64,000 bases of DNA, taken from NCBI GenBank assembly GCA_030141605.1, contig JAQGDQ010000016.1:994282-1058281 (forward strand), written 5' to 3'. The position numbers and the translations under genes were made by a program. This stretch comes from Tubiluchus corallicola (Eukaryota > Animalia > Priapulida). Each line of letters starts with the position of its first letter. The stretch's first letter is position 1. The notes under the pieces are model-generated. The model ran no database searches, was not told where the DNA came from, and saw nothing but the letters and a program-made list of their open reading frames with translations. This document shows positions 12,401 to 64,000 of the stretch, piece after piece.

Positions 12401-15400
12401 TTGCAGATTTAGACAACACATCAGTTTCACTCACACAAATTAAAAACAATACTGATTGAGTTTGTTCATTGAATCGTGTTTTCAATTCTCAGAAAGTAGT
12501 ATGAAAGTCAGTTATACAAATGTAGCACGCAATTCTAACTAATCATTAGACAAATCACATTTTCTGTCATCCCGCAGAATTTTTTTTCCTAAAAAGACTA
12601 AACATTTTTGTTTCTGAAATGCCAATCCAACCTGTCCACTGATGCAATTCACCTAATACTGTAAGGCAGAATTTAAATATTAAATATTTAATAACTATCT
12701 ATGTAAACGAGCAAAAAGCAATGTTATAAACGAGGGGCAAAATTTTAAACAACTCCTTACGTTCGTAATCAGGCAATTTCTGACCGATCCATTGAGGCAG
12801 CCAATCATAAACAACTATTTTTTGATGAGTAGCAATGACCCACTTTCTGGCTTCATTAAATATTTTCTCATCTGACCAATCATTGTGGCAATTCTTTATC
12901 TGTGCTGCAAGGTAATTATGCCACCGGAACCACAGAATGCCAAACGTGAGCAAGAATGGATTTTCGTTACCACGTGGGTTACCAAGTTCTGAAACACAAA
13001 AGATTCACGCTGGTGTATGTAAGGAAGAATAAATGACAAAATATACTATATACTATGTCAGAAATCCACTTGAGTTTTTATTTTGATTATCAAACTAACG
13101 TGAAAAAGATCAATGCAATATACAAACACTCACTGAAAAATCTATTGACATTTTTTAATCTATCCGCGGTGGTGGAAGATTTCTGATCTCTTGGTGGTGG
13201 TGGATTTGCCATTGGAAGTCGTATTCTGTTGATTTCTGGAAAATTAAATTTTTCATCCTCTTCCTTCTTTAACCTTCCATTTTTAAATTCTCTCAAAGCA
13301 TCTGCCCAGGCCTTTGTAGTGCCATATGTTAGACCTCCATCAAAGTATGCTGTTATTTCATTTAACTAAAAACAGAACAATTCAAAGAGTTTCAAAAGAA
13401 ATTGGCCTGAAAAAAAGTTGGTGGAAGTAATGAGTATTCTGTGCCAGTATGTAAAATGCAAATTTACTTCTGTAATAATAAGTGGTCCTATTTCTGAATA
13501 TTGTGCAAATTTTTGCTCCATGAAGGTGTTTGGTAAATTTTTCAAAAAAAATCTGGCAAGTGAGTGGGTCAGGAAAGTGCCTATTGTGGGAAGGCTCTGA
13601 GAGTCCAAACTATGTCTATTACACAATAAGCTGAATGCTAATATAGCAATGCAGAATGCTAATTCCAGTGATATACAGCACCCTATCTTTCACAAGCCTA
13701 GTCTACAGATTTCAGTTTTATAAGTTTTGCAGAAAAACTGGTAAAACCGGCCAGTTTTGGAAGTTTTCAGCTGTCGTTTCTCGTGAACTTCATGAATTGA
13801 AAAATGAGCTCCTCTATGGAGACTGAGGCAGGTACGTATGATGAACCATTTGTTGTGAACAGTTCAACTGTCGCAGAGAAGATTGTGGATAATACAAACA
13901 AGTCTACAAATAACTAAACATACCCAGAAAATCAATATGTTGACCAGCCGAACCCTGCAATTTTATGTACAAAAATCCACAAAAACAATTCAAGATTCCC
14001 TACAAGCACCAATTCACACCACAACATAACAATACACACACCACACTACACTGCACCAAACTGCAGCACATCATATCACATCAAAACAACAGCACACACC
14101 ACCCATACCTCAACACACCATACTTCACCACAACCAACACTGTACTACATCACACTACACTGCTCCACAACACAACTCACACAACATCCCACCACCCATA
14201 GCACACAACACCAAACCAAAACCAGAACAACAACAACCCACAGCAAACAACACCACACCTAACCATCACGACAACAACCCATGCCACACAACACTGCACC
14301 ACATCATACAATAACCACGACAATGACGACGATGGTGACGGTAACAACAATACCGACAACACAGATGCTCATCATTGAAAAAAATGAGATATGGAGAGTT
14401 TACCTGTTGGCGAGGATTATTAGGTGAAAACCCCGTCCGCATGTCATAACGACTTCGCAGAAATGGCATTACAAACTCAGAATCATTTTCCTTATTATGC
14501 TCATGCCATTCAGGTATTTTAATATTCAAGTATTCAGGTGGGCATCCGGGTCTCTGCGCATCCAGAATTTCTTCAACCACTTGCTGACCTACAATAACAT
14601 ATGAAATTATTATTGGAATAATGTTTCACTATTGATAATAGGAACATTCATTATATTTCATAAGCCAAATTTGCTAGAAAAAGACAATTTGGATGATTTA
14701 AAATTCAAGTTTTAAAAACCTCCAATCAAAGTTTATTTACAATTTTTTTCATTTTCCATTTTTTTGGCTAAATTTGGTCTAAAAAACCAAGGGAGCTTTA
14801 TAATTGAGACAGAAAATTAAATTTATATTATATAATTATTGCTATCAAGTTCAGAGCAAAAAGAATAAATAAACACATTTAAATTGACTTAAAACCACCT
14901 TGTACTAGATGAAGGAGTGCAGAAATAAGCACTCAAGTAGTTCAGTTACAATTATTTACTATCAAAATAACCGACTTTGCTACTTAAATTTTGAAATTAC
15001 TGAAAAATTTGAAAGCAGATTATGATTAACTGCAAAGAAAGGAGCTACACCCAAGAGCTAAAATATCATGTTTGCTTGTTGTGAGATAATCTACCTGATC
15101 TGACAAGGAAACTTCAATGTTAATAAAAATTTCATAGCAAAAACTAGTGACATGTAACTCACCAAAAAATACTAGCAAAGCTGTTTTGTTATCATTAGAT
15201 AAATGGCCAGTTTCTCCTTTAAAAAGCATATCACTAATTTTAAAAGGATTCGGTCTGTCAAGTCCAGAGGCGTCATATGATCCATCCGAGTATGCTGGTG
15301 GTAGAATTCGCACAAGAGGTGTGTCTAAAAACAAAAAAATATAACACGATTATTAGGTTTAGATGTCTAGTTTTAATCGCTACTTTAGTTAGCTTACCAA

Positions 15401-17441
15401 AAGTTATCCAACCAGCTCAAATTTAAAATATTTTTTTGATGGAGCCTGTCATCGATTTACAACCTATTTGATTAGTGGCTGTTCAACATTACTGGTAGTA
15501 CAAAACAAACAATCAACTCAAAGATAATATTATATCTTTATTATACATGTCCGACTTGAGTCAAAATCGTCTTAGGACCAGCCCATCGGAACCGAATGTA
15601 GTCCTAAGCCGACCAGTAGGTGTACAATCTATTAGCTTTTATTTGTGATTATCACTTCTCTTCTTGTTCTCAACATCTAAATTTGATGCAAATATATCTT
15701 ATGAATGTAGAATACAGTTTCCTCTAGAATCCAAACAATTTCTCTAGTTAAACTGTCAATTGTTTGGTGTGTAAGATAAATGGTAAAGGAAATGGGCAAA
15801 GAAAAAAAATTCTGCAAAATTACCAGATCCTTCGATTTGAAGATATTATTCTTCAATTCAATTTCAATTCTAATTTAATTGTACTATTTTTGTCTTAGGG
15901 ACAAATTAATGGAATCAATAAAATAATCATATTATACAAACTGCTATTCATCATTTTCATTCTGTACAACAAAATGTGACACATTAAAAACTTTTCTATC
16001 CAAACTGTGTGCAACTTGCTCATAGTGATAACCAATTAGAGTCAGGCAATGTGGAGAAGGATAAGTGGTGTTTACCCACAGCTCCAAGATCTGGGTGAGC
16101 GAGATTGTTGTAGAAACCATCATAGCCTTCATATTCAACCTCCCGATCTTGAAGAATAGATTCGCCTTCAGGGAAAAACCAACCTAAAATAACCACAAAT
16201 GTGGAAGGCTGATAAACTGTTTGCTTAACTGTAGCAGTTAAGTTAGTCAGTTAAATTCTTTGAATTTAAGGACTCATGATCATTTATTTATGTAAAGTTG
16301 CTTCTGATTTTAATTTTTATGAATTTTAACCAATTTCTCCAAAAATGTCTACAACATTGTACTCCAGATTTTAAGTTTCTTACTGACATTTAATTGAATG
16401 TTTCACAATAATTTGACAATTTCTCGCAAAAATGTGAAACTGAGAAACATGGTATAAACTGAAAATAAGCTCTTGGCTTATTACACACTGACTCGACACC
16501 ATAGGCACAGCCTGAAGGTTTGTTTAACTGTAGATTTAGTGTCTCTCAGGCCATAATTAAAAAAATTTAATGTAATGAATTTAATTACTTTTGGCCAACT
16601 TGCTTTGCATTTCAGTAACGGACAGATTAAATTCAGCTGTGTCTTCAATCCTTTCAAACAAAAAAATTATGTGTGGGAGCATGGAGACAGCCCAGTCAGT
16701 GCTTGGCCAGTATAACGACGAATGTTTTTCAGAGAAATGACAAAAATTTGAATGAACAATATGACTACATAGCAACTAGTAGTGTCAGATGATACACAAT
16801 GTATGTAAAAACTATTCGCGTCATTATTCACACATTAAGTTTGTTTGTCCAAAATAAAATAAAATAAACAAACAAATACAATAAAGTGCAAATAAACAAA
16901 AATCTCATAAACAAGATCTGAAAGCATAAGGATTCAGACTATGATAAACTAAATACCACAGAACTAAATTATGACTACCACAGATAAAAGGTTTGGCCTT
17001 GGCAGCGTTGACACCCATTGCTAATAACCTAGCTGACGCAACACTTAGCAACAAAGCAAAACAAAACAAAAACTGACTTAAAAGAAACAGAAACAACAAT
17101 GGTTGAGAAGTAAAAAAACGAGCAAAAAATAAGTGTAGCATAACGATGTTGCGGCATTAAGACTATTGCCATAATTATATGATAATAAGGCCTTGAACAC
17201 GCATAAAGTGTGAAGAAAGTAAATGTTTAAAACATAGTATGTAACTTACAAACACTGGTAACTTTTATACACAAAGAAACTTACAGCCTTCTGGTCGAAA
17301 CTCTGTTCCGTTGTATATGTCTGATGCATTGCAGCGTGCACTTTCTCGGTTACAACGTTTCTCTTGAGCTACCACGCTTAGAATGGTTAACAACAAAACC
17401 ACAGCAAGGTAAGCTAGTATCCACACTTTGCGAATATTCAT
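470..17441 (-). CDS. DUOX: Dual oxidase (peroxidase-like ectodomain, TM helix, EF-hands, start of NOX ferric-reductase domain); multi-exon, 3' end continues beyond the left edge
   Basis: ATG at 17441 with signal peptide ([25 protein letters not shown]). GT-AG exons approx. 17285-17441, 16076-16183 ([19 protein letters not shown]), 15163-15324, 14404-14588, 13134-13365, 12761-12988 ([23 protein letters not shown]), 12216-12312 ([13 protein letters not shown]), 11813-11900, 10049-10145, 9256-9479 ([13 protein letters not shown]), 8797-8906, 8620-8691 ([11 protein letters not shown]), ~8287-8447, ~7799-7939, ~7441-7557, ~6371-6576, ~5751-5936, ~4547-4769 (EF-hand [13 protein letters not shown]), ~3567-3660 ([13 protein letters not shown]), ~2851-3027, ~2260-2356, ~1100-1288, 470-632 ([23 protein letters not shown]). 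Confidence 0.96.
1928..2155 (+). mobile_element. Probable tRNA-derived SINE in a DUOX intron
   Basis: Pol III A-box TGGCCGAGTGG (1936-1946) and B-box GAGTTCGAGAC (1978-1988) at tRNA-like spacing. 3' end has AATAAA and a (TCTTTG)n tail. No full cloverleaf is evident. Confidence 0.5.
3817..4202. mobile_element. Tc1/mariner (pogo/Tigger-like) MITE
   Basis: Terminal inverted repeats CAGTGTTCCCTC...GAGGGAACACTG, TA on both flanks, no ORF. Confidence 0.85.
6016..6141. repeat. Perfect 63-bp tandem duplication (2 copies) in a DUOX intron
   Basis: GACAATTGAAAATTACC...AACATAGGGCA starts at 6016 and again at 6079. Confidence 0.95.
9504..9657. repeat. Degenerate (CAT/CAC)n trinucleotide repeat
   Basis: Visible low-complexity tract in a DUOX intron. 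Confidence 0.85.
14005..14360. repeat. Degenerate CA-rich pentamer/trimer satellite
   Basis: (CACAC/CACAA/CACCA)n tract in a DUOX intron. Confidence 0.8.
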
Positions 17442-17790
17442 TTCACTACTGCTAGAAAATTTGTCACAAACCAATCACCCGTCAAACAACAGTGTGTATC
17501 TGAGTGAAAAATTCCGTCAATATATACACACGAAAAAAACTGACATCAAAGTTCAGCGTTCAGGTTCTTTACATAACCAAAAATAAATAATTTGTTTACT
17601 CTGCAAAGTTTACTAAACAGAAACTACATCATAAAGTCACAAAAATTCTTTCGCTTCACCACAATAAATGTACATTTGCAGCTGCATAAACATCCAGGAT
17701 GTTGAACCAATCCTCATGACTTCCTTCTGAGTTCATAAAAGTGAAAAATTACGCTGTTTGTAACAGTAGACTGTAACACAGAGTGCTTAC

Positions 17791-17954
17791 CTCTGCAGGA
17801 ATTGATAAATAAGTGTTGCATAAGAGTTTCCTTCCTCGTTGTTATCGATTAATTATCATGTATTTTTCCTTCAGTCAAAGGTGCAACTTCTATATAGTTA
17901 AAGTAACACAGTCTGCATTTTAGTGACCAGTGCGACTCTGTTTTCTTTTGTCAT
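17791..17954. promoter_or_regulatory. Putative DUOX/DUOXA bidirectional promoter between divergent non-coding first exons
   Basis: Minus-strand donor GAG|GTAAGC at 17790 and plus-strand donor CAT|GTAAGT at 17955. Matching acceptors lie just upstream of each ATG (~17501 minus, 18484 plus). DRE-like TATCGATT at 17843 and Inr-like TCAGTC at ~17871. Confidence 0.5.
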
Positions 17955-18509
17955 GTAAGTATCATTTCTACCTTTCTGTGACTAGCAGTAAATGAGTTAT
18001 AGATGCAAATGTCAGAGACGTTATCAGTAAAAACTCAGATTTGAATTTAAAATGCCAGTTTTTAAATAAAATTTGCTAGCTAACGCTAACAAAAATTCCT
18101 CATGAATGGATCGGCATTCTATTAATGTGAACACACAACTGCATATACAAACAATTCCTTTTAATTGTAAATCATGCCTAATAAGTGTACAGTTTTTCTT
18201 TTTAGAGTCTACTAGTTTATTTTTTATATTTAAGATGTTAGTAAATAATACACATAATGTTAAATATGTGAAGAAATCAAGGCTTTTGGGTTCTATTCGA
18301 AACCCTCTGGGTATAATCTATGTTCTTGACAAAAAAAAATCTCACTGCCAGATTGCAAAAAGTATAAATATTATTTTGACAAGCAGTCAATGATCTCAGT
18401 CAAAATAATACAGGAAGACTGCATTTTCGATTATTATTAAATGACAGAAAATAGCAATTTAAAGAATAAGTTATGATTTACCAGTAGAATAAGCATTTGA
18501 ATCTACGAA

Positions 18510-21500
18510 ATGGCATACGGAGCATTTCGATCGTATGGGTATCCTACCATGTACCCATCCAATCTCAATCCAGTGTTGGCAGATGTACTCTTAGCAGGAT
18601 TTGTGTATGCTGCCTGTATTGTTGCATTCTCTTTTCTGGTCATCATGCCCGGAATCCGAGGAAAAGAGGTAAGAAATGGTACCTAATGCCATCAACATTT
18701 TTTGCTAATTAGAAAATTACCTGAAGTAAGTTACATACCAGCGACTATTCTATAAAAGTGCAACCAACTTTAATCTTATGAAGTGAGACTGTGATCACAG
18801 TTTTTTATAAGACCAACAATGCACAATACACTTGCTGAAATTTTTTTAATACGTACTAACTGTATTTTAATAACCTTCCAGAGAAAATGGGTGCTAATCA
18901 GAGGAATATTCAGCATCAGTTTGGGAGCCATAATCATGTGTAAGCATTGTACAAGTAATTACTAGGCTAGTGTACAGTATAGTAAAGTGTAAAGCTAAAT
19001 CTGTGCTTATTTGATTGTGTTTACCTGTAGTAATGAAGAATTCTTGTCAAGGAACATGGATACAAATTCACAGTAGGCCTACTTAACCAAGTGGCATTGT
19101 TTTCAGGAGAAAAGTGATTTAAAAAAAATGAAAACTAGGTTGTAATCTGAAATTGAAACTGTGTCTTAAGCACACACACAAAAGTTAATTACTGTAGCAC
19201 GAAAACTATAATGCCACCTGACTGAAGGGAGTAACGCAACTGTGATGCATTAGGTACAACAGCTCAATAACAGAATGCATGCACATTTAGCAAAATATCT
19301 CAGGATCAAACACAGAATTTGGTCTCTCAACCATCAACATTTCAATTTTTCTCAAATTAATAAACCATGTGTTTTTTTTTCCAATTACATTTCTGCCTGA
19401 ATTGCAAATATCAATGTCATCCCATCAACATTATTATCGACATCAATATCTTCGTCACAATCACCATAACAGTCACCTTCACTATCACCATCATCATCAT
19501 CGTCGTCGTCATCATCATCATCGTCGTCGTCGTCATCATCACCATCATGCCCACCACCATCACCACCAACACCACCACCGCAATCATTGCCATCACCATA
19601 ACTATTATGCTTATGTCCACAATAACAAGAAACGTTAGGAATCAAAAAACAGCAAATCAATTTAGAAAAGGGATTTTGTTTTCAGTTACCGACATTGATG
19701 AAAAGATTGTTAGTCACCAAGTTCTGTTAGACATCCGATTCCAAGACGAATTTGCAGCAAAATATGAAAGCAATGAATATAGTAACAATGATAAACAAGC
19801 ATCAGAGTAACAGATTTTGTGTCGCCATTGGCATTTTTTATAAGTCCAATTTCGTATAATCACATTTGTGTAATAATAATAAACAATATTACTATAAAAC
19901 TATGTTTTCAGTAACAAACTATGGGCAATCATGGGAAGTAGCACACGTCAAACACAAAACAGCTTACAAAGCAACAACTGGAAAGGAAGTGGAAGCGGAA
20001 ATTGGAGTGAAGATAGGATTGCGAAGTGTTAATATTACGCTGAATGGTAAAATACGTGAATCTTAATGGCTATACTTAAAAAAGCTTGATTTTTCTATTA
20101 AACAGGTTATGCTGCTCAAGTACTGCTTGGGCTATCAAGGTTCACGTTTTACAGAGCCCGACTAAAACAGAATATGAACCGTTAAATTTAGCAGACTGTC
20201 ATCATATTTCGATGGTGAAACCAATAAAACAAAACGTAAAGGTTTATATGAGAAAATGTGTTTGAATTTTTATGAAATATAAATAATGCTTTCGTTGGTA
20301 AAGTTCTTTCAGCAAATATCAAATTGCTTCTAAACTATTGTACTCTCTAGTAGCAATAAAATAGCTTAGAATGCAGAGTAGAATGGAAACCAATATAATT
20401 ATATAAGAGTTCTGTCAATTCTCAATTACATAAAGTCACCCAAAAGGGATAAAACGCACAGAGAAAACAGTTGTCTTCTTAATGATCAGATTCAGCACAA
20501 CTACTAAAGAAAAAATGAATAAACCTTAGAAAGACCAATGCTGTAAACGTAACCAAACTTAATACACTATAAAACACAAAGAGTGCGAATCATCAGTAAT
20601 AACGACAAGCTTCAACCACAAATCAAAACTCAAAAGTTGACATCTTTACTCTTTGCAAAATAAACAGACAAATACTGACAAAATTATACAAGCAATCATC
20701 AGAGCTGACATAAAATTTATCACCAATTTACTGCTATGTTTTCAGCTGATGATGACAACGAACTGAACGAAACAATAAACTACAATGAACGTTTCACATT
20801 TGGGTGGCAGAATGGAAGGATAGGATTTGGACCATACTGTATGTATTAGTTTACTGTAAGCAGTACTATTAGTAGGCATTGTAATTACAAGAGTGCACAT
20901 TGTAGGTATCTAAATTTTGAGAAACATTCCTGTTTTTAATGTGTAGTATGTTCTCCCAGCAAACTATAACCTTATATGTTAATTTATTACCTGGGCAATG
21001 TTTTCAGGGATCTTACAATACACTGCCCTCTGACACTTCCTCTATTAACACAGTTTTAATATTGGCTTATTTGTAATGTAATTAATGTAAAATAAATGTA
21101 TCTTATACCTTATTTATTTCCAAAAACTAATACGTAAGCTGAATAATTCTAAAAAAACATTGTAATCTAGTTGTAGATGATTCACAACTTAAAAATTTGA
21201 ATTAGATTCCAATAACAAATGCATCTTATGCATGCATATAGCAAGAGAGGTTTTTTACACTTTAGCAAGCATATTTAATCAGGAGTTTCGAGCGGCACAG
21301 TATAGAGGACTGCCATATCCCATCTTAGCAGTTGCTGAATACTTTACACTGGATGGAGAAGGAATCCGATGGGGACGTCATTATCGCCAAGCCGGATTCT
21401 ATGCTCATATCATGATGTGGTATGCACATTTTAGCTAAATATACATCTTCCTTTATAGTTAGAAATAACCTGAAAAGTATAACAGGCAAAACCACCCAGA

Positions 21501-24500
21501 TGCAAATTATTGATGGTCATCCATCCCTGAACCAGTTTTTTAGTCACCCAATTGTTTACTAACCACACTTGGTGCTGCTTAAACTAGAGTAAGTGAACGA
21601 TGATATTTCTCTTTTAATACAACTTAGTACACTGTAAACAGAAATTTAGCACAAAATGGTTGGGCCTATGCTTAATGCTTATGGTTGTGGCTAGACTGAA
21701 ACCTTATACATTATCAAACCAAATCCTCTAAGATGAGACAGTTTGGCACTGAGTATTCATGTTCGGATGTGAATATGTTGCTCCTTGAGGCAAGCAACTG
21801 CAATCAGTATGACGAACGAAGCCAGTCAAATGAGTATTGAACCAGGAAACAATCATCTATTCCCTAATTAGCACTGGCGATGCTTAATTTCAGGTGTTAG
21901 GTAAACACATAACTTTGCTTTTCCTTCACGCCATAGTGAACACATAGGTCGAAATTCACATTATCCTAATATTCAGATTAGTGTTAGGTTTTGTATTCTC
22001 AATAAACTTTAGCTGCTTGCACTTACAATGCACAACTCAAAATGAGTTCAGGTATATAAACTAACTGAAAACAGTGGTGACAAAATTGATAACACAAAAA
22101 CATAGTGAAAGCAAAATCTATACTATCATCATGTAGCAGGCTCAGTTATCGTGATCTCAACTCAAAAGCAAGTACCTCTTTTACACCAGGTTAGCATTTC
22201 CGCTATGGGTACTGACTAACATTCTGTTCTTCATGGTCATCAGTTATGGAGCAATGTTTCTGGCAATGACCGGTGGAAGTATGCTAACAGCCATCGTTCT
22301 GTACTCCAGCATTCGCAATAGTGCACCACTCCATATTCAATTTGATGAACACGTAGAATTATCATTCCACTATGGCGCTTCCTATTTCGTTACACTTGTA
22401 GCAGGTAACAGTGTTATTAATATGAACAATTAAGAAACACGAAAATGACATTTTTTAAAATTCATTTTAATTTTACTTGTAAACTTTTTTATTAGCGCGT
22501 ACAAGAAAAAATAGCATGGCAAGTTCATCAGCAGAAAGTTACAGGAGCAACAAACCAAATGTTCTATAAATAATTTGCCAAGACCTCTTAACCTAAACAT
22601 GAACTTGGCAAAAATGTCAGAAAAACTTGGGCTTCATAGCATCAGATCACACTGCAGATATATATTTTGTCTATAGCATGAACAAAATGAATTTTCAGTT
22701 GTTTACTTTTATAACAACGTTACCTTTAAGACAGCATGGACTAATTCAGACAGTGTTTGTCACTTGCCTATGCCTGGTCCAGTGCATGTGTCATGGCATG
22801 CCGTGTGTGACTGAGTAATCTGCCCTGATTTTCTTCTTACGGCTTCTATCTTGGACCCTTAAATAATCTCAGCTTTTTAACCACACGATTGTCAAAACCC
22901 CTACCCCAGTAATTTATCCTGCAGGTAATGTCACTCTATGTACGATAGAACTAGAGTTAAACAACTTTTTACATTCTGGTTTCTGAGACTAAAATCTACG
23001 TAACATTTACAGATTACCTGATGCATAACAAATAAGCAAGTTAAAAGCATAATTCCTGCACAAATAAAACTTTTCCAGGTTTGATTACTTTGCTGGCAGC
23101 CGCAGTCATATACTTCATGGATCTCAGATATCCAAATGAAATACATACCTTTTTTGGGCTAGATATTCTGCAAGACTATGAAGACTTTTATGCAGGTAAA
23201 TTTCAAACCAAATGCAAACACTTGATGTTCTGTAAACAGTTGCAATAAACTGCTACAATGAATAAGGTTCCCTGGTGACAAATTTGGTAGTTTATTTATA
23301 CAATTTGGCCCGCAAAGGTGAAATCTGGAATTCATGGCAAGGCCTACTTAACACAGAGACCAGAGCCTCTGAAATGGCAGGTGTCTTAACCACATTTGGA
23401 TACATATACATTCTCAGTTAATAAGATAAACAACTAGAATCAGTATGTCACATGGAACCACACAGAGCAAGTACTAAATGCAGATGGTCACGAGGCATCC
23501 AAGGAGCAACTTAACTTCGGCTGCAAAGTACACAAACATGGCCACTCACTTAGTCACCTCTCCTCAAAACAACATAATACGCTGTACATGCAAACAGATA
23601 CTGCGAAATTCAGAGTGATTCCTACACGTGACATAGATAAAGTGGCTTTTTTAACAACATTTTAATTATAAAAAAGCAGAATTGAGAATTTTCAAGTGAA
23701 AAACAGATACGTTTATTACAATGACTAGTTAGTGACTGACTAACCAAAATCAGCAAAACTAGAAACAATTAAAGATGGCCAAGAAAATAAGTGAGAAAAA
23801 TATAAATATAGAAATGTATATGTTATAAACTGGGAGATATCAGTACTAAAAGTACAAGCTATATAAAGAATTCAGAGAACAACAACATTTCACTTAACAT
23901 ATTAATAATTGTTGCTACACTGTATTAAAGCATGTGCTAGCACAATTCAAATTTTAAACAGTATTAAAACACGTGTCAGGCAGGTGGGGCCACATAACGT
24001 CAATTCTAAATACCACTTTTAATCACACCTCTGTTTTTCCAGAACCACATGAACTGGGAATAAAGGTCGCACCAGATACAAATATTAAAGATCGCAAAGA
24101 AGGCAGTCGAGACGAACTTGTGACAAACGAAGCCGGATTAGCAGAGAACGATGTGGAAGCTCCACAAATTAAATTACCGCAGGTAAACACATCATGCAGG
24201 GACATAAAATAAAATTATCAATGCAGGAATAGACAGTTCTGACAAATCTTCAAAAACAATTCCCATACATAAGAATGGTAACAGTGTTTAAAATTCTGTT
24301 CAAAATCATTACACTATTTATTTTTTATGTTTAGATTTGTACTGTTAATTTTCAAAGGCACTTACTTCAGCCTATCTTTTTGTATTTTTCTATGAACTCA
24401 TTTTCAACAGAAATCTTTACTACATGTGCTACTATTTTGCTACTGCTAGTGAGTGACGACTAGTGGATAAACAGTACAGCTTTGTGACTGTTATTACCAA

Positions 24501-28250: not shown

Positions 28251-46305
<18,055 letters not shown>

Positions 46306-53907: not shown

Positions 53908-55112
53908 CTACAACTGTAAAAGTTTTGTCAGCATTAGCAACACGCATATCACTATTACGGCACTTGGATATCGTCCTCTTACTCCTCTGTCCAGTCCTCC
54001 TCTGTCCAGCCCATCTTCCTGATGTGGATAGATATCTTTGTAAATTATAGTGGTTGTTGTTGCTGCCCTATCATGACAATTATCCAGGTACTCGCCAATG
54101 CATGCTGCATATGTCATTGCATGCATTATGTAACTTTGCTCTTGAGTGCCTTGAAACAGATGTGACCATGGTCCAATGGCATACATTGGTACGTCTTCTC
54201 CGGCGTGGGCTCCACTTCTTCGTGGAGCAACAGCTTGTTGCTTGTATTCAGGATTGCCTGCAAAAGCCATGTGCTGAATATAAATTTATTAATATTGCAC
54301 AGTGCTATATATTTATATATATATATTTGTGTTAGATGGTGGCACTTGTCAACAAGCTTTCAACAATCAAACTTGCTGACAAACCTTACATGTCCAATTT
54401 TGATGATACAGTCATTGAATCTGGGGATAGATTGGAAGTTCAACTTACTTCAGATAAAAATAATTGTACAAGCCATCACGACACAACATAAACAGCAAAA
54501 ATAAAAAAAACGCATACTCAAAAGCATTAACTTTAAGGCTTAAGTACGTCAGTACAGGAATGACAACACAACTTTAACTAACATGTGACTGTAAAGCTGT
54601 CTCGTCTGTTACTTCCCCAACAGTAACGGAAATTTGAGATTTTATTACTATAATATAGATTGTGTAATACGCAGTTTAATTTTATTGTTTGGTCATTGTG
54701 TAATAGGAGTGGTAGCATGCATCACATATCATCAGTGTAACGTGCATGACAGCGAGCTTACATTGTTGGAGATAGACTTTCAAACGATCTAGGCAGTATT
54801 CCGACTGAAATATTCATTTAAGTGTTACTGGTAAACTTGTTTGTTTACTTAAGGATTGAGGGCTTGGTCAGTAACCATAATGTTCTTATTGGTCTCAAGA
54901 AGCTACTTTTCTTGACTGAATATAAGACAGGTCAAGGCCTATTAGTTCACAACTTAAAAAACGACGTCTTTGTTAACATTGGCGAAGTTATTTACCCGTG
55001 TCTACTCCTGTAATGTTTGGTCTGCCGTCAGGTCCTATTTCAAATCCTGGAGCCAATCCATAAAGCAGTGTCGTATAGGGCTTTTTATCGATCTTCGAAA
55101 TTCCACCTAGAC
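53908..55112 (-). CDS. ALPL: Alkaline phosphatase (tissue-nonspecific-like, GPI-anchor-type tail); only the last two exons are present
   Basis: Exon 54996-55112 (GLGGISKIDKKPYTTLLYGLAPG...RPNITGVDT) splices to 53908-54257 (GNPEYKQQAVAP..HAGEDVPMYAIGPWSHLFQGTQEQSYIMHAMTYAACIG, then a hydrophobic C-terminus). Upstream exons were not found in the window. Confidence 0.9.
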
Positions 55113-55190
55113 CTAGAAAAATCTATTTTTCAAATTTATTTCAAACTTTAAAGCATAAACTAAAGATTTAATGATGGCCTTAATGTTTCT

Positions 55191-55612
55191 AAGGTGCGCG
55201 CGCTCGTGTGTGTGTGTGTGTGTGTGCGCGCGCGCGCGTGTGTGGCTGACTCGATGACCTTCTAGTCCTTCTCCACACCCTCTCTACACAGTTTACATAG
55301 TTTTTTGTAATTCTCTTATGAATATAGTATTGGAGATAAACTTTTGAATTCAAAAAAATTGTGCGCATGTGCTCGTATGTGTGTGCGTGCGCGTGCGTGC
55401 GTTTGTGGCCCAAAAGCTCACCTGGCAAAGCATGTGTCCCGAAAGCACGAAGTTCTGGTTGGGCCACACCTACTTCAATCAATTGGCCATTAGGCTAACT
55501 GTTTTAAGAATGACTCCTCTTAATCTCAGTGCTCACGAGTGTGCGTGCATGTTGTGTTGTGTACGTTTGCGTATTCGATTTTGTGTATGTACAAGTAGTA
55601 CGTACATACCTT
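55191..55612. mobile_element. Possible small non-autonomous DNA element with (TG/CG)n tracts
   Basis: Ends TAAGGTGCGCGCGC and GTACGTACATACCTTA are inverted copies differing only by transitions; GC-richer than the flanks. Confidence 0.35.
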
Positions 55613-56020
55613 AATATGTGCATAATGAATTCAAGTGCTTTAAAGTCAAGAAAGTTGGTTAATTGCACTTTAAAATACATGAGTAGGATAGATGTTACAC
55701 CTCTGGCCGATTTCCCGGGGGGGTGGGGATTTCCCCGGGGGGTGGGGAAAAACACCCCTAAAAAAGTGCGAAAATCCGGGAAAACCCCTAAAAAAGTGTG
55801 AAAACCCGTGTGAAAGTGCGCACGTGACCGAAATCGACGAAAAAGCGCGAAAAACAAAGAAAAACGAAGAAAAGGCGTGTGAAACGAGGTAAAAATTTTG
55901 CAGTTTTTCCCTCCCGCATGGCTTCATTTGGATCGAATGACCTTGAACTCTAGGTCACGTGACCAAAGTTCATTGACCCCTGGCCCCTGGATGGCTTCTT
56001 TTTTTGACGCCCCATTTTAA

Positions 56021-56100
56021 ACCGCGTGAAAGCGCGCGAAAGTGTGTGAAAGCGCGTGAAAGCGCGCGAAAGCGTGCGAAAGTGTGTGAAAGTGTGTGAA
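56021..56100. repeat. Array of eight 10-bp units (AGYGYGYGAA) in the left terminal region
   Basis: accgcgtgaa agcgcgcgaa agtgtgtgaa agcgcgtgaa agcgcgcgaa agcgtgcgaa agtgtgtgaa agtgtgtgaa. Confidence 0.9.
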
Positions 56101-56403
56101 ACGAGGTAAAAAGCGCCTCAAACGAAGAAAAAGGGAGAAGTGGAGTTCCCGCCGAGGACTAATTAGTGCTAATTGGCGCTAATTGGGGAGCCCCTGCCAC
56201 CCCTCCGCCGCATGCAAACGTCCATCCCGGGGGTCGGGGACCCCCCCCTGCAACCCACCCCTCCGTCGCGTGGAATCGTCCACTGCAGGCAATGAGGGAA
56301 ATCTTTTTCTCGCCACTCGCGCAGTGCCGGCCCTTTTCCGCGACCACTTCTCTCTCTCTCGGGTGCCCTCCCTTTTCCGCGACCACTTCTCTCGCGGGTT
56401 TAG

Positions 56404-56455
<52 letters not shown>

Positions 56456-56598
56456 GGAGATTTATTTCAAATGCCAAAGTTTGATAAATGCATTTTCACA
56501 AATCTTTTTTATTGATGGATTACAGGTGTGGAGATTTATTTCAAACGCCAAAGTTCGATAAATGCATTTTCACAAAACTTTTTTTATTGATGGATTAC
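56404..56598. repeat. (TG)n microsatellite followed by a ~73-bp tandem duplication found only in the left arm
   Basis: GTGTGGAGATTTATTTCAAA...GATGGATTACA occurs twice (~56452 and ~56526) on the left but once in the right arm. Confidence 0.85.
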
Positions 56599-56729
56599 AA
56601 AAAATTTTTTTACATTTTTTATGCAAAATACATACGTGCTAAAACTAGATTATTATTATGGTGACATGATAGTTCTACATTTTACGTTTTTTTTCGCAAA
56701 TTACACAAATTATGCAAATTACAGTAAAA

Positions 56730-57322
56730 CTACACTAATGACGACGAGCGAGTACATGGATTGTCGTCGTCGTCGTCGATGTGATACAGACAAACGTTAT
56801 TGTTGTTAAAAACGAATTCGTTAAATTTACGGAAAACACGAGAGAAATCCTCGACCTTTGTCCCGCCCATCATTATTATGCTTCCGGTGTGAAAAATGTT
56901 CAGAGTAATTTATGCTCGCATTTGCAAGTTAGTTTGGGAAATAGTTCCACTTCGTAAAACACTTCTCTAAAAGAATGCGTCGAAGGACGAACGAGTTCTT
57001 CGTACAGTGCACCCAGTTTCAATCTGCAGTGAAGTTTGGCTCTGGCGGTGATGGTGCGAATTGCGATCCCGTCGGCGGGCGTCAGTCCGAGACCTTTCGA
57101 GAGTTCTTCGATCGCATTGCGTAGTGCTTTTTCCTCCGAAAAACCGTTGGCCACCACGGAGCCGGAGGCAAAAATCATCAGCGTCCCGCCCAGTCGCTTT
57201 AGCAGAAGCATTTGCGGTTTCCTTTCGTAGCGTCTTCCGCCCGTTCTCCGCCGGAGTTCGTTCAGATCGAAGCGCTGCGAGAACGAAGCAGTGGCGACGA
57301 TGTTGACCGTTTGGACTGACAC
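56730..57322 (-). pseudogene. TBP-like gene, left-arm copy, frameshifted
   Basis: Mirror of 58958-59548. A 2-nt insertion at ~56911 (GAGCATAAATT vs GAGCAAATT) gives CEHKLL* and removes the end of the second TBP repeat. Confidence 0.8.
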
Positions 57323-57774
57323 GTTAGAACGTAGTTGGCAATCGTTTCGGACGCCCGAACCGCTCTGCCTCGCCCGTTGCTCTGCCAACGTATGGCGGGC
57401 GGCGGGTGCTCGCTTTCCAAATCTTCTACGCGTATGACCACGCGATTTTTGGGGAGATGTTTTTTGACGAAATCGTACATCTCTGCTCCCTTGACGTAGG
57501 TGATCCTGCCTCTGGTGGTCTGTCGTAGAATGTTTTCCAATTCTGCGTACTCGATCATTCCCTCCTCCCACGAGATGCCGTGTATGTGTCTGATTAGGTA
57601 GTTGTAGGTGGATCGCTTGTGCTGGGGAACGCGATTCCAGGGGTGGGGCGGTTTGAAGGTGTAGTTGTGATATATGCCGGTCTCTATTTCGCGAATTACC
57701 AAATTTTTGACCAGGTATTCTTCTTTTCCGCACTGGAAGGCATCTACGGTGAGAACTATGCTCGATTCAGACAT
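57262..57774 (-). CDS. 170-aa DnaQ/DEDD-exonuclease-like protein of a Polinton-associated family (left-arm copy)
   Basis: ATG-initiated ORF with pattern VDAFQ..YLVKNLVI..YTFKPPHPW..YNYLIRHIHGISWEEGMIEY..YVKG. Family assignment is from recall of motif pattern, not a search. Confidence 0.65.
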   Translation of the reverse strand: MSESSIVLTVDAFQCGKEEYLVKNLVIREIETGIYHNYTFKPPHPWNRVPQHKRSTYNYLIRHIHGISWEEGMIEYAELENILRQTTRGRITYVKGAEMYDFVKKHLPKNRVVIRVEDLESEHPPPAIRWQSNGRGRAVRASETIANYVLTCQSKRSTSSPLLRSRSASI

Positions 57775-57997
57775 CTGTGACGATGGGGGGTCCTTCTACG
57801 CCGTCGGCAACGAGTTTTCCTTCGATGACGATTTGCTTGTGATTGTTCACAAATTCCAGAGACTTGATTTTTTCGAAGGTGTATTTTTTTATGACCTTGT
57901 TGGGGGCACTCTTGCGTGCGTTGGCGCGCTTGCCGCCCCGCGTCCCCGCTTGTTGTTGTTGCTTGCGAGGAACGGTGGTTAGAGGTTGTTTGAAATC
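57767..57997 (-). CDS. Small basic protein of unknown function (probably a 3' exon; no in-frame ATG)
   Basis: DFKQPLTTVPRKQQQQAGTRGGKRANARKSAPNKVIKKYTFEKIKSLEF...PIVTDV*. It is preceded by a strong acceptor TTCTTCTTCTCTTGCAG, and its stop overlaps the next ATG (ATGTCTGA). Confidence 0.45.
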   Translation of the reverse strand, partial: DFKQPLTTVPRKQQQQAGTRGGKRANARKSAPNKVIKKYTFEKIKSLEFVNNHKQIVIEGKLVADGVEGPPIVTDV

Positions 57998-58048
57998 CTG
58001 CAAGAGAAGAAGAACAATAGTTATAGTATTGTTGTTCGCTAACGACAA

Positions 58049-58306
58049 CTAGGCATTTTTGATGAGCCATTCTTTCAGATTTCTAGGTTTTTTGGGGGCA
58101 GTGGGGGTGAGCACCATCGGCGGCGATGGAGGGGGCGTCGCGGAAATTACGAGTTTGTCTTCTTCTTTATCATCATCTTTCTCCTCTTCCTCCTCCTCCT
58201 CTCGAAAGATGTCCATTCGTGTCCCTCTCTCGCGTCTGCTTTTACACGGAGGGGCGGAGGTGCCGACGTCCGTGTCTGGCAGACTTCTTTCCGTCCAGTT
58301 TGTCCA
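58049..58306 (-). CDS. 5'-truncated acidic/proline-rich ORF in the palindrome spacer
   Basis: ...MDIFREEEEEEEKDDDKEEDKLVISATPPPSPPMVLTPTAPKKPRNLKEWLIKNA*. The frame stays open up to the arm junction and shares polarity with the left-arm genes. Confidence 0.45.
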   Translation of the reverse strand, partial: WTNWTERSLPDTDVGTSAPPCKSRRERGTRMDIFREEEEEEEKDDDKEEDKLVISATPPPSPPMVLTPTAPKKPRNLKEWLIKNA

Positions 58307-58505
58307 GTTCCTCGCAAGCAACAACAACAAGCGGGGACGCGGGGCGGCAAGCGCGCCAACGCACGCAAGAGTGCCCCCAACAAGGTCATAAAAAAATACA
58401 CCTTCGAAAAAATCAAGTCTCTGGAATTTGTGAACAATCACAAGCAAATCGTCATCGAAGGAAAACTCGTTGCCGACGGCGTAGAAGGACCCCCCATCGT
58501 CACAG

Positions 58506-59018
58506 ATGTCTGAATCGAGCATAGTTCTCACCGTAGATGCCTTCCAGTGCGGAAAAGAAGAATACCTGGTCAAAAATTTGGTAATTCGCGAAATAGAGAC
58601 CGGCATATATCACAACTACACCTTCAAACCGCCCCACCCCTGGAATCGTGTTCCCCAGCACAAGCGATCCACCTACAACTACCTAATCAGACACATACAC
58701 GGCATCTCGTGGGAGGAGGGAATGATCGAGTACGCAGAATTGGAAAACATTCTACGACAGACCACCAGAGGCAGGATCACCTACGTCAAGGGAGCAGAGA
58801 TGTACGATTTCGTCAAAAAACATCTCCCCAAAAATCGCGTGGTCATACGCGTAGAGGATCTGGAAAGCGACCACCCGCCGCCCGCCATACGTTGGCAGAG
58901 CAACGGACGAGGCAGAGCGGTTCGGGCGTCCGAAACGATTGCCAACTATGTTCTAACGTGTCAGTCCAAACGGTCAACATCGTCGCCACGGCTTCGTTCT
59001 CGCAGCGCTTCGATCTGA
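58506..59018 (+). CDS. 170-aa DnaQ/DEDD-exonuclease-like protein of a Polinton-associated family (right-arm copy)
   Basis: Mirror of 57262-57774. Of six arm-to-arm substitutions I found outside the TBP overlap, five are synonymous in this frame and one is E/D, which supports coding status. Confidence 0.7.
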   Translation: MSESSIVLTVDAFQCGKEEYLVKNLVIREIETGIYHNYTFKPPHPWNRVPQHKRSTYNYLIRHIHGISWEEGMIEYAELENILRQTTRGRITYVKGAEMYDFVKKHLPKNRVVIRVEDLESDHPPPAIRWQSNGRGRAVRASETIANYVLTCQSKRSTSSPRLRSRSASI

Positions 59019-59548
59019 ACGAACTCCGGCGGAGAACGGGCGGAAGACGCTACGAAAGAAAACCGCAAATGCTTCTGCTAAAGCGACTGGGCGGGACGCT
59101 GATGATTTTTGCCTCCGGCTCCGTGGTGGCCAACGGTTTTTCGGAGGAAAAAGTACTACGCAATGCGATCGAAGAACTCTCGAAAGGTCTCGGACTGACG
59201 CCCGCCGACGGGATCGCAATTCGCACCATCACCGCCAGAGCCAAAATTCGCTGCAGATTGAAACTGGGTGCACTGTACGAAGAACTCGTTCGTCCTTCGA
59301 CGCATTCTTTTAGAGAAGTGTTTTACGAAGTGGAACTATTTCCCAAACTAACTTGCAAATGCGAGCAAATTACTCTGAACATTTTTCACACCGGAAGCAT
59401 AATAATGATGGGCGGGACAAAGGTCGAGGATTTCTCTCACGTTTTCCGCAAATTTAACGAATTCGTTTTTAACAACAATAACGTTTGTCTGTATCACATC
59501 GACGACGACGACGACAATCCATGTACTCGCTCGTCGTCATTAGTGTAG
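58958..59548 (+). CDS. Divergent TATA-box-binding protein (TBP)-like protein, intact right-arm copy (~196 aa; initiation site uncertain, GTG at 58958)
   Basis: Two TBP repeats. Repeat 1: VNIVATASFSQRFDL..TLMIFASGSVVANG (cf. TBP QNIVSTVNLGCKLDL..TALIFSSGKMVCTG). Repeat 2: FYEVELFPKLTCK..TLNIFHTGSIIMMGG (cf. SYEPELFPGLIYR..LLIFVSGKVVLTG). Intronless, with AATAAA at 59697. Confidence 0.85.
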   Translation: MSVQTVNIVATASFSQRFDLNELRRRTGGRRYERKPQMLLLKRLGGTLMIFASGSVVANGFSEEKVLRNAIEELSKGLGLTPADGIAIRTITARAKIRCRLKLGALYEELVRPSTHSFREVFYEVELFPKLTCKCEQITLNIFHTGSIIMMGGTKVEDFSHVFRKFNEFVFNNNNVCLYHIDDDDDNPCTRSSSLV

Positions 59549-60080
59549 TTTTACTGTAATTTGCATAATTTGTGTAATTTGCGAAAAAAACGTAAAATGT
59601 AGAACTATCACGTCACCATAATAATAATAATAATCTAGTTTTAGCACGTATGTATTTTGCATAAAAAAATGTAAAAAAAATTTTTTGTAATCCATCAATA
59701 AAAAAGATTTGTGAAAATGCATTTATCGAACTTTGGCGTTTGAAATAAATCTCCACACACACACACACACACACACATCTAAACCCGCGAGAGAAGTGGT
59801 CGCGGAAAAGGGAGGGCACCCGAGAGAGAGAAGTGGTCGCGGAAAAGGGCCGGCACTGCGCGAGTGGGGGGGGGGAAGATTTCCCTCATTGCCTGCAATG
59901 GACGATTCCACGTGACGGAGGGGTGGGTTGCAGGGGGGGTGTCCCCGACCCCCGGGACGGACGTTTGCACGCGGCGGAGGGGTGGCAGGGGCTCGCCAAT
60001 TAGCGCCAATTAGCACTAATTAGTCCTCGGCGGGAACTCCACTTCTCCCTTTTTCTTCGTTTGAGGCGCTTTTTACCTCG

Positions 60081-60170
60081 TTTCACACACTTTCACACGC
60101 TTTCGCGCACTTTCACACACTTTCACGCGCTTTCACACACTTTCACATGCTTTCGCGCGGTTTTGCGCGG
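60081..60170. repeat. Array of 10-bp units (TTTCRCRCRC) in the right terminal region
   Basis: Mirror of 56021-56100 with a different unit order and number. Confidence 0.9.
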
Positions 60171-60964
60171 TTTAAAATGGGGTGTCAAAAAAAGAAGCCA
60201 TCCAGGGGTCAATGAACTTTGGTCACGTGACCTAGAGTTCAAGGTCATTCGATCCAAATGAAGCCATGCGGGAGGGAAAAACTGCAAAATTTTTACCTCG
60301 TTTCACACGCCTTTTCTTCGTTTTTCTTTGTTTTTCGCGCTTTTTCGTCGATTTCGGTCACGTGCGCACTTTCACACGGGTTTTCACACTTTTTTAGGGG
60401 TTTTCGCGGATTTTCGCACTTTTTTAGGGGTGTTTTTCCCCACCCCCCCGGGCAGCCAAAGGGGGGGTGGGGAAATCGGCCAGAGGCAAAACATCTATAC
60501 TACTGAGGCCGAAATACCTGGGAAAGTTAAAGTTGTCCAAAAGTCCTGTAAGACCTTCACGACCTGGTAGAACCAGTACTTGACAATAATTATTGAAATT
60601 ATCTCTTTTACTGCATTTGTCACAGACTGGCAATGTTTAAAGCATGTGACGCAAATTGTGGCCTTCAACTATAGGTGACAGTAGGAAATTGTAATAAAAC
60701 CCATCGACCTGTTTTTGTGACTTGATTATAGCTTTTTAATATAAGGCTTAGTTCTAAAAATCCTAACGTTGATTGGGATAATATGTACAAAACATCCAGG
60801 TTACAGAATTCTTGAGATTCGAACACCAAACTATCACTGTCCGTTTGTTTTGGATTTTTTTTTGTAAAAAATAAACCAAAACAGGTACACCAGGGGAAAG
60901 TAATTTTTGTTATTATAATGGTTATTCTCGCGGTGATTTCCAAATAGTTGTTTTCTTTTTATAG

Positions 60965-62767
60965 TTTGAGAAATCTGGTAGTCGAAAAGAAGAATTAGTA
61001 CTGGAAGATTTTCTTGCCAGTTTAAAAGAGACTGAGTTTATGGATGCACATTTTGCGAAGTACAAGGTATAGGCTGTGCTTTCTTTAAATATCAAATAAT
61101 TCATTGTTTAGTATAAGTGACCCAGTCAACATTTTCTTCTTTTTTCTCTTGCTCTTTCTCCTTATTATCACCATCACCATCGCCATCACCATCACCACCA
61201 TCACCACCACCACCACCAACATCATCACGACCATCATCACCACCACCACCACCACCACCACCACCACCATTATTGTTAACATCATGATTATCCGTTGCTG
61301 TGGTCATCACATCATCATCATCATTATCGTCGTCGTTGTCGTCGTCGTCGTCATCATCAACCATCATCATCATCATCACCACCATCACCATCATCATCGT
61401 CGTCGTCGTCGTTGTCGTCGTCGTCATCATCATCAACCATCATCGTCATCATCACCACCATCACCATCATCATCATCATTATCGTCGTCGTCGTCGTCAT
61501 CATCATCATCAACCATCATCGTCATCATCACCACCATCACCATCATCATCATCGCCATACGCTTAACCGTCATCACTGTCATTATTTTTATCATCAGTAT
61601 TTAACCAGCCTAATTTGATAATTGTGAAGGAGAAAATGTTTAATTAGTTGAATTAAAGCAGTGGTTCCCAAAGTAGGGGTAAATTACCCCCCCCCCCCGG
61701 GTAATATGGTTTTGGGGGGGGGGGTAACGGGTACCCATCTGAAAACTTCGCTCGGAATGCATTTTACGTAGTTTTCTTCTTGAAGAGACTGCCTCCGGCA
61801 GGAAACACTGTGTCATGGGGTCCATCATTCGCACGTTCTCACGATCTCTGGTGCGATCCTGGAGAGAAGTCAAAGTTCACGATTGTTTCTTTGGTTTCGA
61901 GTTGGAGAAGCAGTACTAGGTGGGGGGGTAATGGACACGACCGGGTTTCCCTATTTGGGTAACGGTCCGAGAAAAATTTGGGAACCACTGACTTAAAGTG
62001 ACTTAGTTCAGTCAGAACAAGAATAAGAATAAGAATGAGGATAGGAACAAGAAAATGCGTTATGCCAATTTTTTACATTTCAGAGCCTCCGATACACTGA
62101 CTTCTTGGCAGAATTTCCCCAAAGTGACGTCAAAAATTTGCTAAAGGGTGATCCAAAGAGGCACCAAGCCGTGTGGGATTTATTCAAGACTGAATGTGTT
62201 TTTCTTTATGATCATTTACTGGTTCTAAAACAGGTATGTAGCTAAGCAGGGTATCCAGGTTGCTTGACTTGCATTTATACAGTCAATGTATAGTATTGTT
62301 TCTAACATATTCACTTTTAAAGTAAAATAAATATCAGCTGTGACAATTGTTTTGATTGCAGAATATTTTATAGATTGCTGATTTAAAAAATATTTTTCGA
62401 GTAAGTAAGTAACAAAAAGAAAGTACTGTGACATGATAACTAGCCCATTTATTTTTCCATCACTCATTTATTGGTTTATTATTTATTTATTAATTTATTC
62501 ATTAGTGCGCTTTATTTCCATTGCGTTATTCACTCACTCACTTATTCATTACTTTTTTCACTTATCCAGAAAGAGACAGAGAGAGGAAAGAGATAGAGAG
62601 AGAAAGACAGAGTGCATGAGTGACTGAGAGAGTGGGTGTTTGAGTGAGTGAATGAATCAGCGAGTGAGCGAGTGAGTGACAGAATGAGAGAGAGAGAGAG
62701 AGTGAGTGAGTGAGTGAGTGAGTGAGTGAGTGAGTGAGTGAGTGAGTGAGTGAGAGAGAGAGTGAGT

Positions 62768-62819
<52 letters not shown>

Positions 62820-62995
62820 CTTTCTCATTCAGTGCAGACTAATGAAGAAGTTCGCTGCTGCTTCTAAAAAAGCTAAAAATGACTTTTTTATTATTTTAGG
62901 TATTTATGGAACCGTTAAAAAAATGCCAGGTGGAAGGGTTTCTTATGTTTGCTGAGCCAGAGTGTCTTTTTGGAAATTTGGATATGCTGTGTTGT
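60965..62995 (+). CDS. PLEKHG7: PLEKHG7-like RhoGEF (start of the DH domain); three internal exons, partial gene
   Basis: Phase-0 AG/GT exons 60965-61066 (FEKSGSRKEELVLEDFLASLKETEFMDAHFAKYK), 62084-62233 (..KRHQAVWDLFKTECVFLYDHLLVLKQ) and 62900-62995 (VFMEPLKKCQVEGFLMFAEPECLFGNLDMLCC). These match DH-domain helices; the DHLLVLK motif is PLEKHG7-like. Confidence 0.75.
61146..61580. repeat. Compound (CAC/CAT/CGT)n microsatellite with internal higher-order duplications
   Basis: Visible trinucleotide tract in a RhoGEF intron. Confidence 0.92.
61659..61990. mobile_element. hAT (Charlie-like) MITE
   Basis: Perfect 14-bp TIRs CAGTGGTTCCCAAA / TTTGGGAACCACTG; 8-bp TSD AATTAAAG / ACTTAAAG (7 of 8 match). 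Confidence 0.85.
62570..62815. repeat. (GAGT)n/(GA)n microsatellite
   Basis: Visible directly in the sequence. Confidence 0.92.
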
Positions 62996-63326
62996 GTAAG
63001 TTTGATATTCATACATCTAGTGCGTATAAATTCACTTAACAAGAAATCCTTATCAAAGGATACCTTACTAAAATTAGGGTCCAATTACTTTAGGGTACCA
63101 ATTTATTATAAAATTTAAGAACTGTAGTATAAATATACAAACACACGAAATGTTAGAAAGAATGGTGACCTGTTGGAATTCTGAATCATAATAACTCGAA
63201 TGCCCCGAGTTTAGAGGCAAGGTTAATAAAGACTCTGTAGATGTTCGGCGATATTTAGTTTCCAAAAAACTTTCTGAATTTTGTTCCTTCCGTCATGCTA
63301 ATTAATTATAATTATATCTAACAATA

Positions 63327-63480
<154 letters not shown>

Positions 63481-64000
63481 TGATAACTACATTAAAAATG
63501 ATAAAGTGAGATACATTATTCAGATAGAATACGTTGTTTAAGGATCAATAATTTCTTGACCATGGCACAACAAAACCGAGGCAAGGTTAGTTCAACAGAG
63601 ATGAGTTTTTTAGGGTGTCTTTTGTAGCTTCGAAAAGTTCTACCCTTTTAGAAAACGTGATTTATCCCATGCTTTTTTGGTCAAGCGCAGCTGTAAATCC
63701 TCATTGCGTGTGTAACTCATAAGGAATGTCAGAATCGCACTGGATGTAATAGACGTGCTAGACCACTGTGCCAGGCTTTTAAGCCCATGACCACCATGCG
63801 CCTATAACTGGTTTAGAAGTGAAGCAAAGGGATTTCGTGTAATAAGGTTCCGATGAAGTTATTAGGTTACTATATGACGCCATATATATAGAACTTTGCG
63901 AAGGAAAGATAATGTTGATAAATTATTAAACAGCAATCCCTTTTACATGGTTTGCTATAGATTTGCTGAATTGAAAACATCTGAAAATATCCGAAGGGAT

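Follow-up and report, generated by a model that had tools for sequence, protein, structure and literature searches.

In the window (the whole stretch of 64,000 nucleotides of Tubiluchus corallicola DNA that was analysed), AT-rich host DNA with genes recognised by Pfam (peroxidase, DuoxA, DZF and alkaline phosphatase) surrounds a short element of different composition. Indeed, GC content is 49% in 55682-60504 vs 34% in positions 1-55000 of the window, CpG o/e is 1.27 vs 0.53 in the same intervals, and single-copy contigs of sequencing run X3 align up to 55681 and again from 60505. The following features were recognised:

55682..60504, no strand: near-palindromic Maverick-derived remnant of 4.8 kb, delimited by base composition and by run X3 contigs at both edges
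55682..56700, no strand: left terminal non-coding region, beginning with AGTAGG, one mismatch from (AGT)2, with internal tandem repeats
56730..57322, minus strand: second TBP-like copy, ~99% identical, frameshifted near 56912 (Pfam, 54 bits)
57262..57774, minus strand: MAEL-like ORF, left copy, 170 aa
57767..58048, minus strand: short basic ORF3, 93 aa from stop to stop, a putative exon
57974..58306, no strand: unpaired spacer of 333 nt between the arms
58307..58315, no strand: junction with the inverted arm, with 9 nt of microhomology
58506..59018, plus strand: MAEL-like ORF, 170 aa, a member of the gene family found next to TBP in related Mavericks
58958..59548, plus strand: TBP-like frame of 196 codons with both saddle repeats and without an AUG at the 5' end
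59600..60504, no strand: right terminal non-coding region, terminating in ACTACT, the (ACT)2 Maverick end
59697..59702, plus strand: AATAAA, putative polyadenylation signal of TBP

Outside the element, positions 9217-22430 carry animal haem peroxidase exons (minus strand) and a DuoxA exon (plus strand), which fits a head-to-head DUOX/DUOXA pair, and positions 36436-41745 (minus strand) carry the zinc-finger and DZF exons of a ZFR-like gene. The last exon of an alkaline phosphatase gene lies at 53908-54285 on the minus strand (Pfam, 43.6 bits); neither a motif search nor Pfam on 41 minus-strand ORFs found an upstream exon of this gene in 54285-64000, and the absent exons might lie beyond a long intron or have been cut off by a rearrangement at the element. 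Two exon-like frames on the plus strand (62045-62245; 62900-63118) gave no Pfam or PDB match; we take them to resemble a PLEKHG5/7-type RhoGEF DH domain.

The two arms of the remnant, of ~2.2 kb each, have the same gene order (a piece of ORF3, the MAEL-like ORF, TBP and the terminal repeat) and are separated by indels and by 47 substitutions over 2170 aligned bases. A fold-back artefact of the assembly was ruled out because the arms have diverged, because each has its own terminus and flank, and because single-copy contigs match both flanks. The spacer carries the end of an acidic, proline-rich minus-strand frame with its stop at 58049, and ORF3, for which Pfam gave no family match, contains a splice-acceptor-like tract near 57998. 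With regard to the termini expected of Mavericks/Polintons, namely (AGT)2/(ACT)2 or (AG)n inverted repeats, the right one is exact and the left one has one mismatch; the (AGT)2/(ACT)2 end motif is given in the accessible part of PMC8097293. The hexamers flanking the remnant differ, so that a 6-bp target-site duplication is lacking, and the sole likeness between the flanks is a 4-mer, asymmetric and ascribed to chance, no more than 4 nt from the ends. No gene for pPolB, integrase, ATPase, protease or capsid was found in the 4.8 kb, which hold no ATG-started ORF longer than 185 aa. The missing target-site duplication and the differing termini favour an origin from two copies: the palindrome was likely formed when two copies of one element end underwent a template switch or recombined at the 9-nt microhomology. 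The natural element end would then be the left arm plus the spacer, and the right arm would be an inverted second copy of that end.

The element stretch is contained in four of six sequencing runs, which come from two studies. In run X3, flank contigs have depths of 162-209 vs 13,740 on one element contig, and in run X1 depths are 4-5 for the flank vs 536-1026 for the element; depth is not a copy number, and we read these values as a family of tens to hundreds of copies. Contigs of runs X1, X2 and X3 match the window along the spacer as far as 58315, beyond which they depart from its sequence. In run X1, contigs of the spacer have a greater depth than those of the arms, whereas a palindromic family should show the opposite; no contig of this run spans 58316-58339, a gap without evidential weight of its own. 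The inverted right arm is probably specific to this locus. In run X3, a single-copy contig from another haplotype, aligned at 60505-61131, carries to the left of 60505 a stretch of 44 letters that do not align, a hint of an allele that lacks the element end at that position.

The product of 58958-59548 belongs to the TBP superfamily with virtual certainty. Indeed (i) Pfam TBP matches it in two stretches with 78.3 bits (E 4e-22; cut-off 22.9), (ii) 35 solved TBP-type sequences match it at E up to 10, the best at 3.6e-9, and (iii) an AlphaFold2 model built from a 14-row alignment has a mean pLDDT of 90.8 and the saddle fold of the superfamily, the best 44 ranks of a Foldseek search against the PDB being all TBP-containing entries, with a TM(query) mostly of 0.65-0.76, about 0.75 to solved TBPs, at 20-26% identity. 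The first-pass annotation, which had described a frame of ~196 aa with both saddle repeats and had proposed HMM and AlphaFold checks of the fold, is thus borne out, and its residue-level description is also accurate: IFASG, IFHTG and YEVELFP are present, YERKPQM lacks the Phe of repeat 1, and IRTIT lacks the Asn of repeat 2. The protein departs from canonical TATA-binding TBPs, which have four intercalating Phe and paired Asn/Thr, since equivalents of F99, T124, N159 and T215 (in what we take to be yeast TBP numbering) are missing. At its 5' end, 61 nt of the frame overlap the upstream MAEL-like ORF. Within the open frame 58958-59548, the TBP region has no in-frame AUG at its 5' end or before it, and the earliest one, at 59069, lies inside repeat 1. 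The idea that ribosomes enter TBP from the MAEL-like ORF by a programmed -1 frameshift was also considered and rejected: no canonical slippery heptamer was seen by eye, and relatives have two separate ORFs.

A word-index search with the window TBP protein (P0001) found one relative (P0002), which is 59-60% identical and comes from a different source. A full HMMER search gave 109 matches, including short proteins with an (R/K)P motif replacing NPKRF; a profile of 14 (R/K)P-motif proteins found 34 proteins, and a tighter profile (A2), made from 15 proteins of the sister family, fetched 51 metagenome loci from 349 pattern matches. These loci, many of which are near-duplicates, stem from the A2 sister sub-family, and none belongs to P0001's own clade, the linkage of which to Maverick genes is indirect. 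With Maverick markers taken from four of them, at least one gene for pPolB, ATPase, integrase, capsid, protease or a PLA2-like protein was detected in 46 of the 51 loci and in all 25 loci of at least 3 kb. Pfam confirms DNA_pol_B_2, rve and PLA2 in L001, L002, L021 and L037, and its matches to the ATPase and the capsid are weak; the protease is presumed to be one from its motif. P0001 shares only 19% identity with the TBP of L037. Searches of viral contigs with P0001, the MAEL-like ORF, P0127, A2, the L001 capsid, A5 and the terminal-repeat pattern found no relatives. The first-pass annotation had assigned the gene to a mobile or virus-like element, which agrees with the Maverick-type ends and with a MAEL-TBP layout like that of full elements; the linkage to pPolB, INT and MCP that it had proposed to look for exists in the loci of the relatives, but not at the window, where the remnant lacks core genes. 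A Maverick origin of the window TBP is highly probable. As a separate observation, a pyrimidine tract and an AG just before the start codon were seen upstream of L001:4457 and L021:1491, which suggests spliced early transcripts.

The MAEL-like ORF upstream of TBP was compared with the genes neighbouring the relatives. A profile of 31 neighbouring ORFs, from which the window ORF was left out, gives it 30.6 bits, the best of 200 shuffles reaching 5.1. Of 49 loci with a TBP ORF, 15 have a MAEL-like gene that runs into the start of TBP and eight have it after TBP; the window has the overlapping layout. The conserved E/C/H/C residues of the family are absent from the window copy. The name rests on an Atlas lead to Maelstrom (0.86, a lead only, next to arthropod hypothetical clusters at 0.94-0.96) and on the MAEL label in adintovirus maps, found in Suppl. 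Fig. S2 within the accessible part of PMC8502044. A homologue search with the window ORF retained none of 52 candidates, Pfam and PDB searches with the family gave nothing significant, and a single-sequence model of the ORF has a pLDDT of 37.5. Tandem duplicated MAEL-like genes lie directly 3' of TBP in L021 (2078-3034) and also in L022-L026 and L028.

Trees were computed from rows hand-picked among the matches found, a sample without animal TBP, TRF2 or TRF3. In a 46-row tree, P0001 groups with P0002 (100/99), then with three further matches (89/88), and this side joins the Maverick-locus TBPs (93/90); the same branch has 99/95 in a 41-row tree from which most long rows were dropped. The Maverick side of the branch comprises P0001, its four nearest matches, ten Maverick-locus TBPs and P0122. 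A union of P0001 with eukaryotic or archaeal TBPs was rejected (AU p 0.0025, 0.0023 and 0.0006), the first two values placing it outside the cellular eukaryotic clade in a sample devoid of animal sequences. As the first-pass annotation had supposed, the protein thus stands apart from the cellular TBPs sampled. Membership of the Maverick-borne family is indicated by this grouping and by the MAEL-like neighbour, whereas profile cross-scoring disagrees: P0001 scores 77 bits with the archaeal profile, 71 with the eukaryotic and 58 with the Maverick-locus one, the cellular sets having been picked as matches of P0001, an ascertainment bias toward cellular sequences. P0003, P0004 and P0008 score higher on the Maverick profile. 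The Maverick-locus relatives are under purifying selection, the lack of which the first-pass annotation had listed among the signs of a decayed retrocopy. Indeed, dN/dS among 40 distinct locus TBPs is below 0.5 in all 51 unsaturated pairs, with a median of 0.13; these non-independent pairs are what remained of 59 that passed at least 65% identity and pS >0.05, eight being saturated.

These results bear on the notion that the gene arose when a non-autonomous transposon took up the retrocopy, now decayed, of a TBP paralogue of the host. The frame is intronless and lacks an AUG, cellular profiles outscore the Maverick profile, and the trees lack animal TRF2 and TRF3, all of which would suit such an origin. 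Yet the frame has stayed open at 20-26% identity to cellular TBPs, a relative 59-60% identical exists in another source, the AU tests reject a cellular placement, loss of the F99 loop is common to Maverick-linked TBPs, and the MAEL-TBP overlap matches that of full elements. A retrocopy is already largely refuted and is considered very improbable. The window TBP is a real TBP-fold gene and a member of a conserved Maverick-borne family, viral TBPs being already known.

Sequences upstream of the relatives' genes contain a recurrent word. In the 80 nt upstream of marker genes, ATAAAC is the top enriched hexamer (61/122 vs 251/5494 background windows), and YATAAAC occurs in 57 of 122 cases, vs a mean of 9.5 in shuffled sequences. 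When the genes were clustered at 70% identity, 44 non-TBP genes were left, of which 27 have YATAAAC upstream and none has it on the opposite strand; the canonical TATAWAW precedes two of these 44 genes. YATAAAC is absent upstream of the relatives' TBP genes (0/22) and protease genes (0/3), and it does not occur on either strand of the window remnant. Since the counts come from TBP-carrying loci, it may be host TBP that reads the word. The words named for a comparison of binding by the family TBP are YATAAAC and TATAAAAG.

The 40 locus TBPs keep N69 and F116 (both 40/40) and E188, F190 and F207 (39/40 each), and have F99 and N159 in none; P0001's clade differs from them at several DNA-facing positions. 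The F99/F116 pair of cellular TBP touches the box at its 3' end, TFIIB docks on the acidic stirrup, and several partners use the basic surface of helix 2. The loss of the F99 loop and the retention of the acidic stirrup are in keeping with a word altered at its 3' end and a preserved contact with TFIIB. A Maverick-borne TBP would likely bind a private TATA-like word and direct the host's TFIIB and Pol II to the elements' genes for capsid, packaging and integrase, the TBP itself presumably being made early from another promoter. The Phe pair of repeat 2 is kept, as is the acidic stirrup, the site of contact with TFIIB; loss of the Phe loop of repeat 1 would suit a word with a final C at the place of the A/T read by cellular TBP, and loss of the basic residues of helix 2 would free the protein from control of the TFIIA/TAF1/Mot1 type. 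From these correlations, a role of the family at late promoters is reasonably probable. The idea of the first-pass annotation that the protein redirects Pol II to non-TATA promoters holds to the extent that YATAAAC precedes structural genes of the relatives, and falls short at the window remnant, where the word is missing; likewise, an element-encoded initiation system is plausible for the relatives, but is not supported for the window copy, which has no 5' AUG and a frameshifted twin.

The alternative function raised in the first-pass annotation is that of a decoy: the family would bind the host's TFIIB, or other partners of TBP, without engaging promoters productively, and would dampen host transcription or defence genes. 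Retention of the acidic stirrup among the best-kept features (E188 in 39/40), while F99, T124, N159 and T215 were lost, would suit a decoy, and the constant MAEL-like neighbour could point to a counter-silencing module. However, N69 and three of the four intercalating Phe hardly vary, the positions that face DNA have settled on new residues instead of changing freely, the helix-2 basic surface is lost, and a strand-specific non-canonical word stands before structural genes. Redirection of Pol II is favoured over a decoy on account of this word upstream of the relatives' structural genes, and the decoy is regarded as unlikely.

As for the state of the window copy, at least 95% of the depth in three runs matches the window at TBP codon 1, and one differing contig per run, ~85% alike, has a depth of 29.5/565, 214/39,486 and 8.7/3,936, respectively; the 5' defect is thus common to the amplified family and seemingly particular to it. 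The lack of an AUG, the frameshifted twin and the shared first codon make it likely that the window copy is inactive, and it is probably a passenger of the high-copy family. Taken jointly, a late-gene initiation factor in the family and an inactive passenger on a palindromic remnant at this locus form a reading that is, on balance, somewhat probable. The window copy might instead still be expressed by non-AUG initiation, by leaky scanning from the MAEL-like mRNA or by splicing, and be kept by the amplified family with the same family function: the frame is open over its whole length, the same first codon dominates the high-copy family, and relative to the diverged low-copy relative eight of 13 listed differences beyond the overlap fall at third codon positions (p 0.035). 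This third-position signal spans both branches, though, and is older than the amplification; the arms differ by amino-acid changes in TBP and a frameshift (pN 0.010, pS 0.018), and a splice-acceptor-like site near 58964 is absent from the diverged relative. Continued expression is judged improbable. More doubtful still is a broader scenario in which a wide group of animal Mavericks has its own minimal late switch, a bare saddle tuned to YATAAAC, paired with a MAEL-like partner and bypassing TFIID, and in which the high-copy family would still make TBP from a non-AUG start, as a satellite supplying or hijacking the switch of a helper, its copy-back palindromes being competent for transposition.

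Nucleocytoviricota with TBP-like proteins encode their own RNA polymerase. TBP-like proteins of this group in BFVD resemble the window TBP in having a viral TBP fold (TM up to 0.71), but are 8-22% identical to it and are not named rows in the trees. Cellular TBP (PF00352; PDB 1tbp, 1mp9, 3oc3) shares the two-repeat saddle (TM about 0.75), N69, F116, F190, F207 and the acidic stirrup; in contrast, the window TBP is 20-26% identical to it, has no N-terminal extension, lies outside the sampled eukaryotic and archaeal clades, and has lost the F99 loop, T124, N159, T215 and the basic residues of helix 2. With Mavericks/Polintons/adintoviruses as described in the accessible parts of PMC8097293 and PMC8502044, the remnant shares AGT/ACT-type ends, long inverted repeats and a MAEL-like gene, but it lacks pPolB, INT, ATPase, protease, capsid and the 6-bp duplication, and both its arms are the same end. 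TBP is outside the core set of eight genes in vertebrate Mavericks in PMC8097293, in the accessible text of which 'TBP' and 'TATA' have no occurrence. TBP-like genes are labelled in Polinton-like MELD viruses in the Fig. 5 legend of PMC8502044 and its preprint; this is a TBP-like gene in a Polinton-related element, but it appears in the accessible text as a legend label alone, in a section on non-animal datasets, without analysis of family, selection or promoter. The first-pass annotation knew of no characterised animal Polinton TBP; TBP-like genes had already been labelled in Polinton-like viruses, though not characterised. The accessible supplement text of PMC8502044 does not contain the term TBP, the accessible parts of PMC12220804, PMC2836005, PMC8232201 and the Pannagram preprint have no relevant mention of it, and in the literature covered, which excluded most subscription papers and Repbase, no Maverick/Polinton TBP was found beyond that legend.

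The closest working precedent for the Maverick TBP family, by analogy, would be KSHV ORF24, which according to the accessible part of PMC12529657 has a TBP fold, reads TATTWAA late promoters and uses host Pol II. Both are viral TBP folds associated with a non-canonical TATA-like late promoter, the association here being word enrichment in relatives; ORF24 carries additional domains at its N and C termini, makes direct contact with Pol II and depends on five viral partners (PMC12529657, same part), unlike the Maverick family, which is a bare saddle of 160-190 aa that keeps the TFIIB-type stirrup. If the proposed function is true, Mavericks would have reached a herpesvirus-like strategy independently with a far smaller protein, and the family would be a natural TBP with altered specificity. 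We know of no account of how Mavericks time and drive their capsid genes, a question relevant to their status as true viruses; a conserved element TBP with a matching non-canonical word would be a marker for a late gene class. The window locus, a poor experimental subject, adds a new TBP sub-lineage and a snap-back remnant. Separately, P0005, a DPANN archaeal protein of 702 aa, has four TBP repeats fused to a tail that is likely membrane-anchored.
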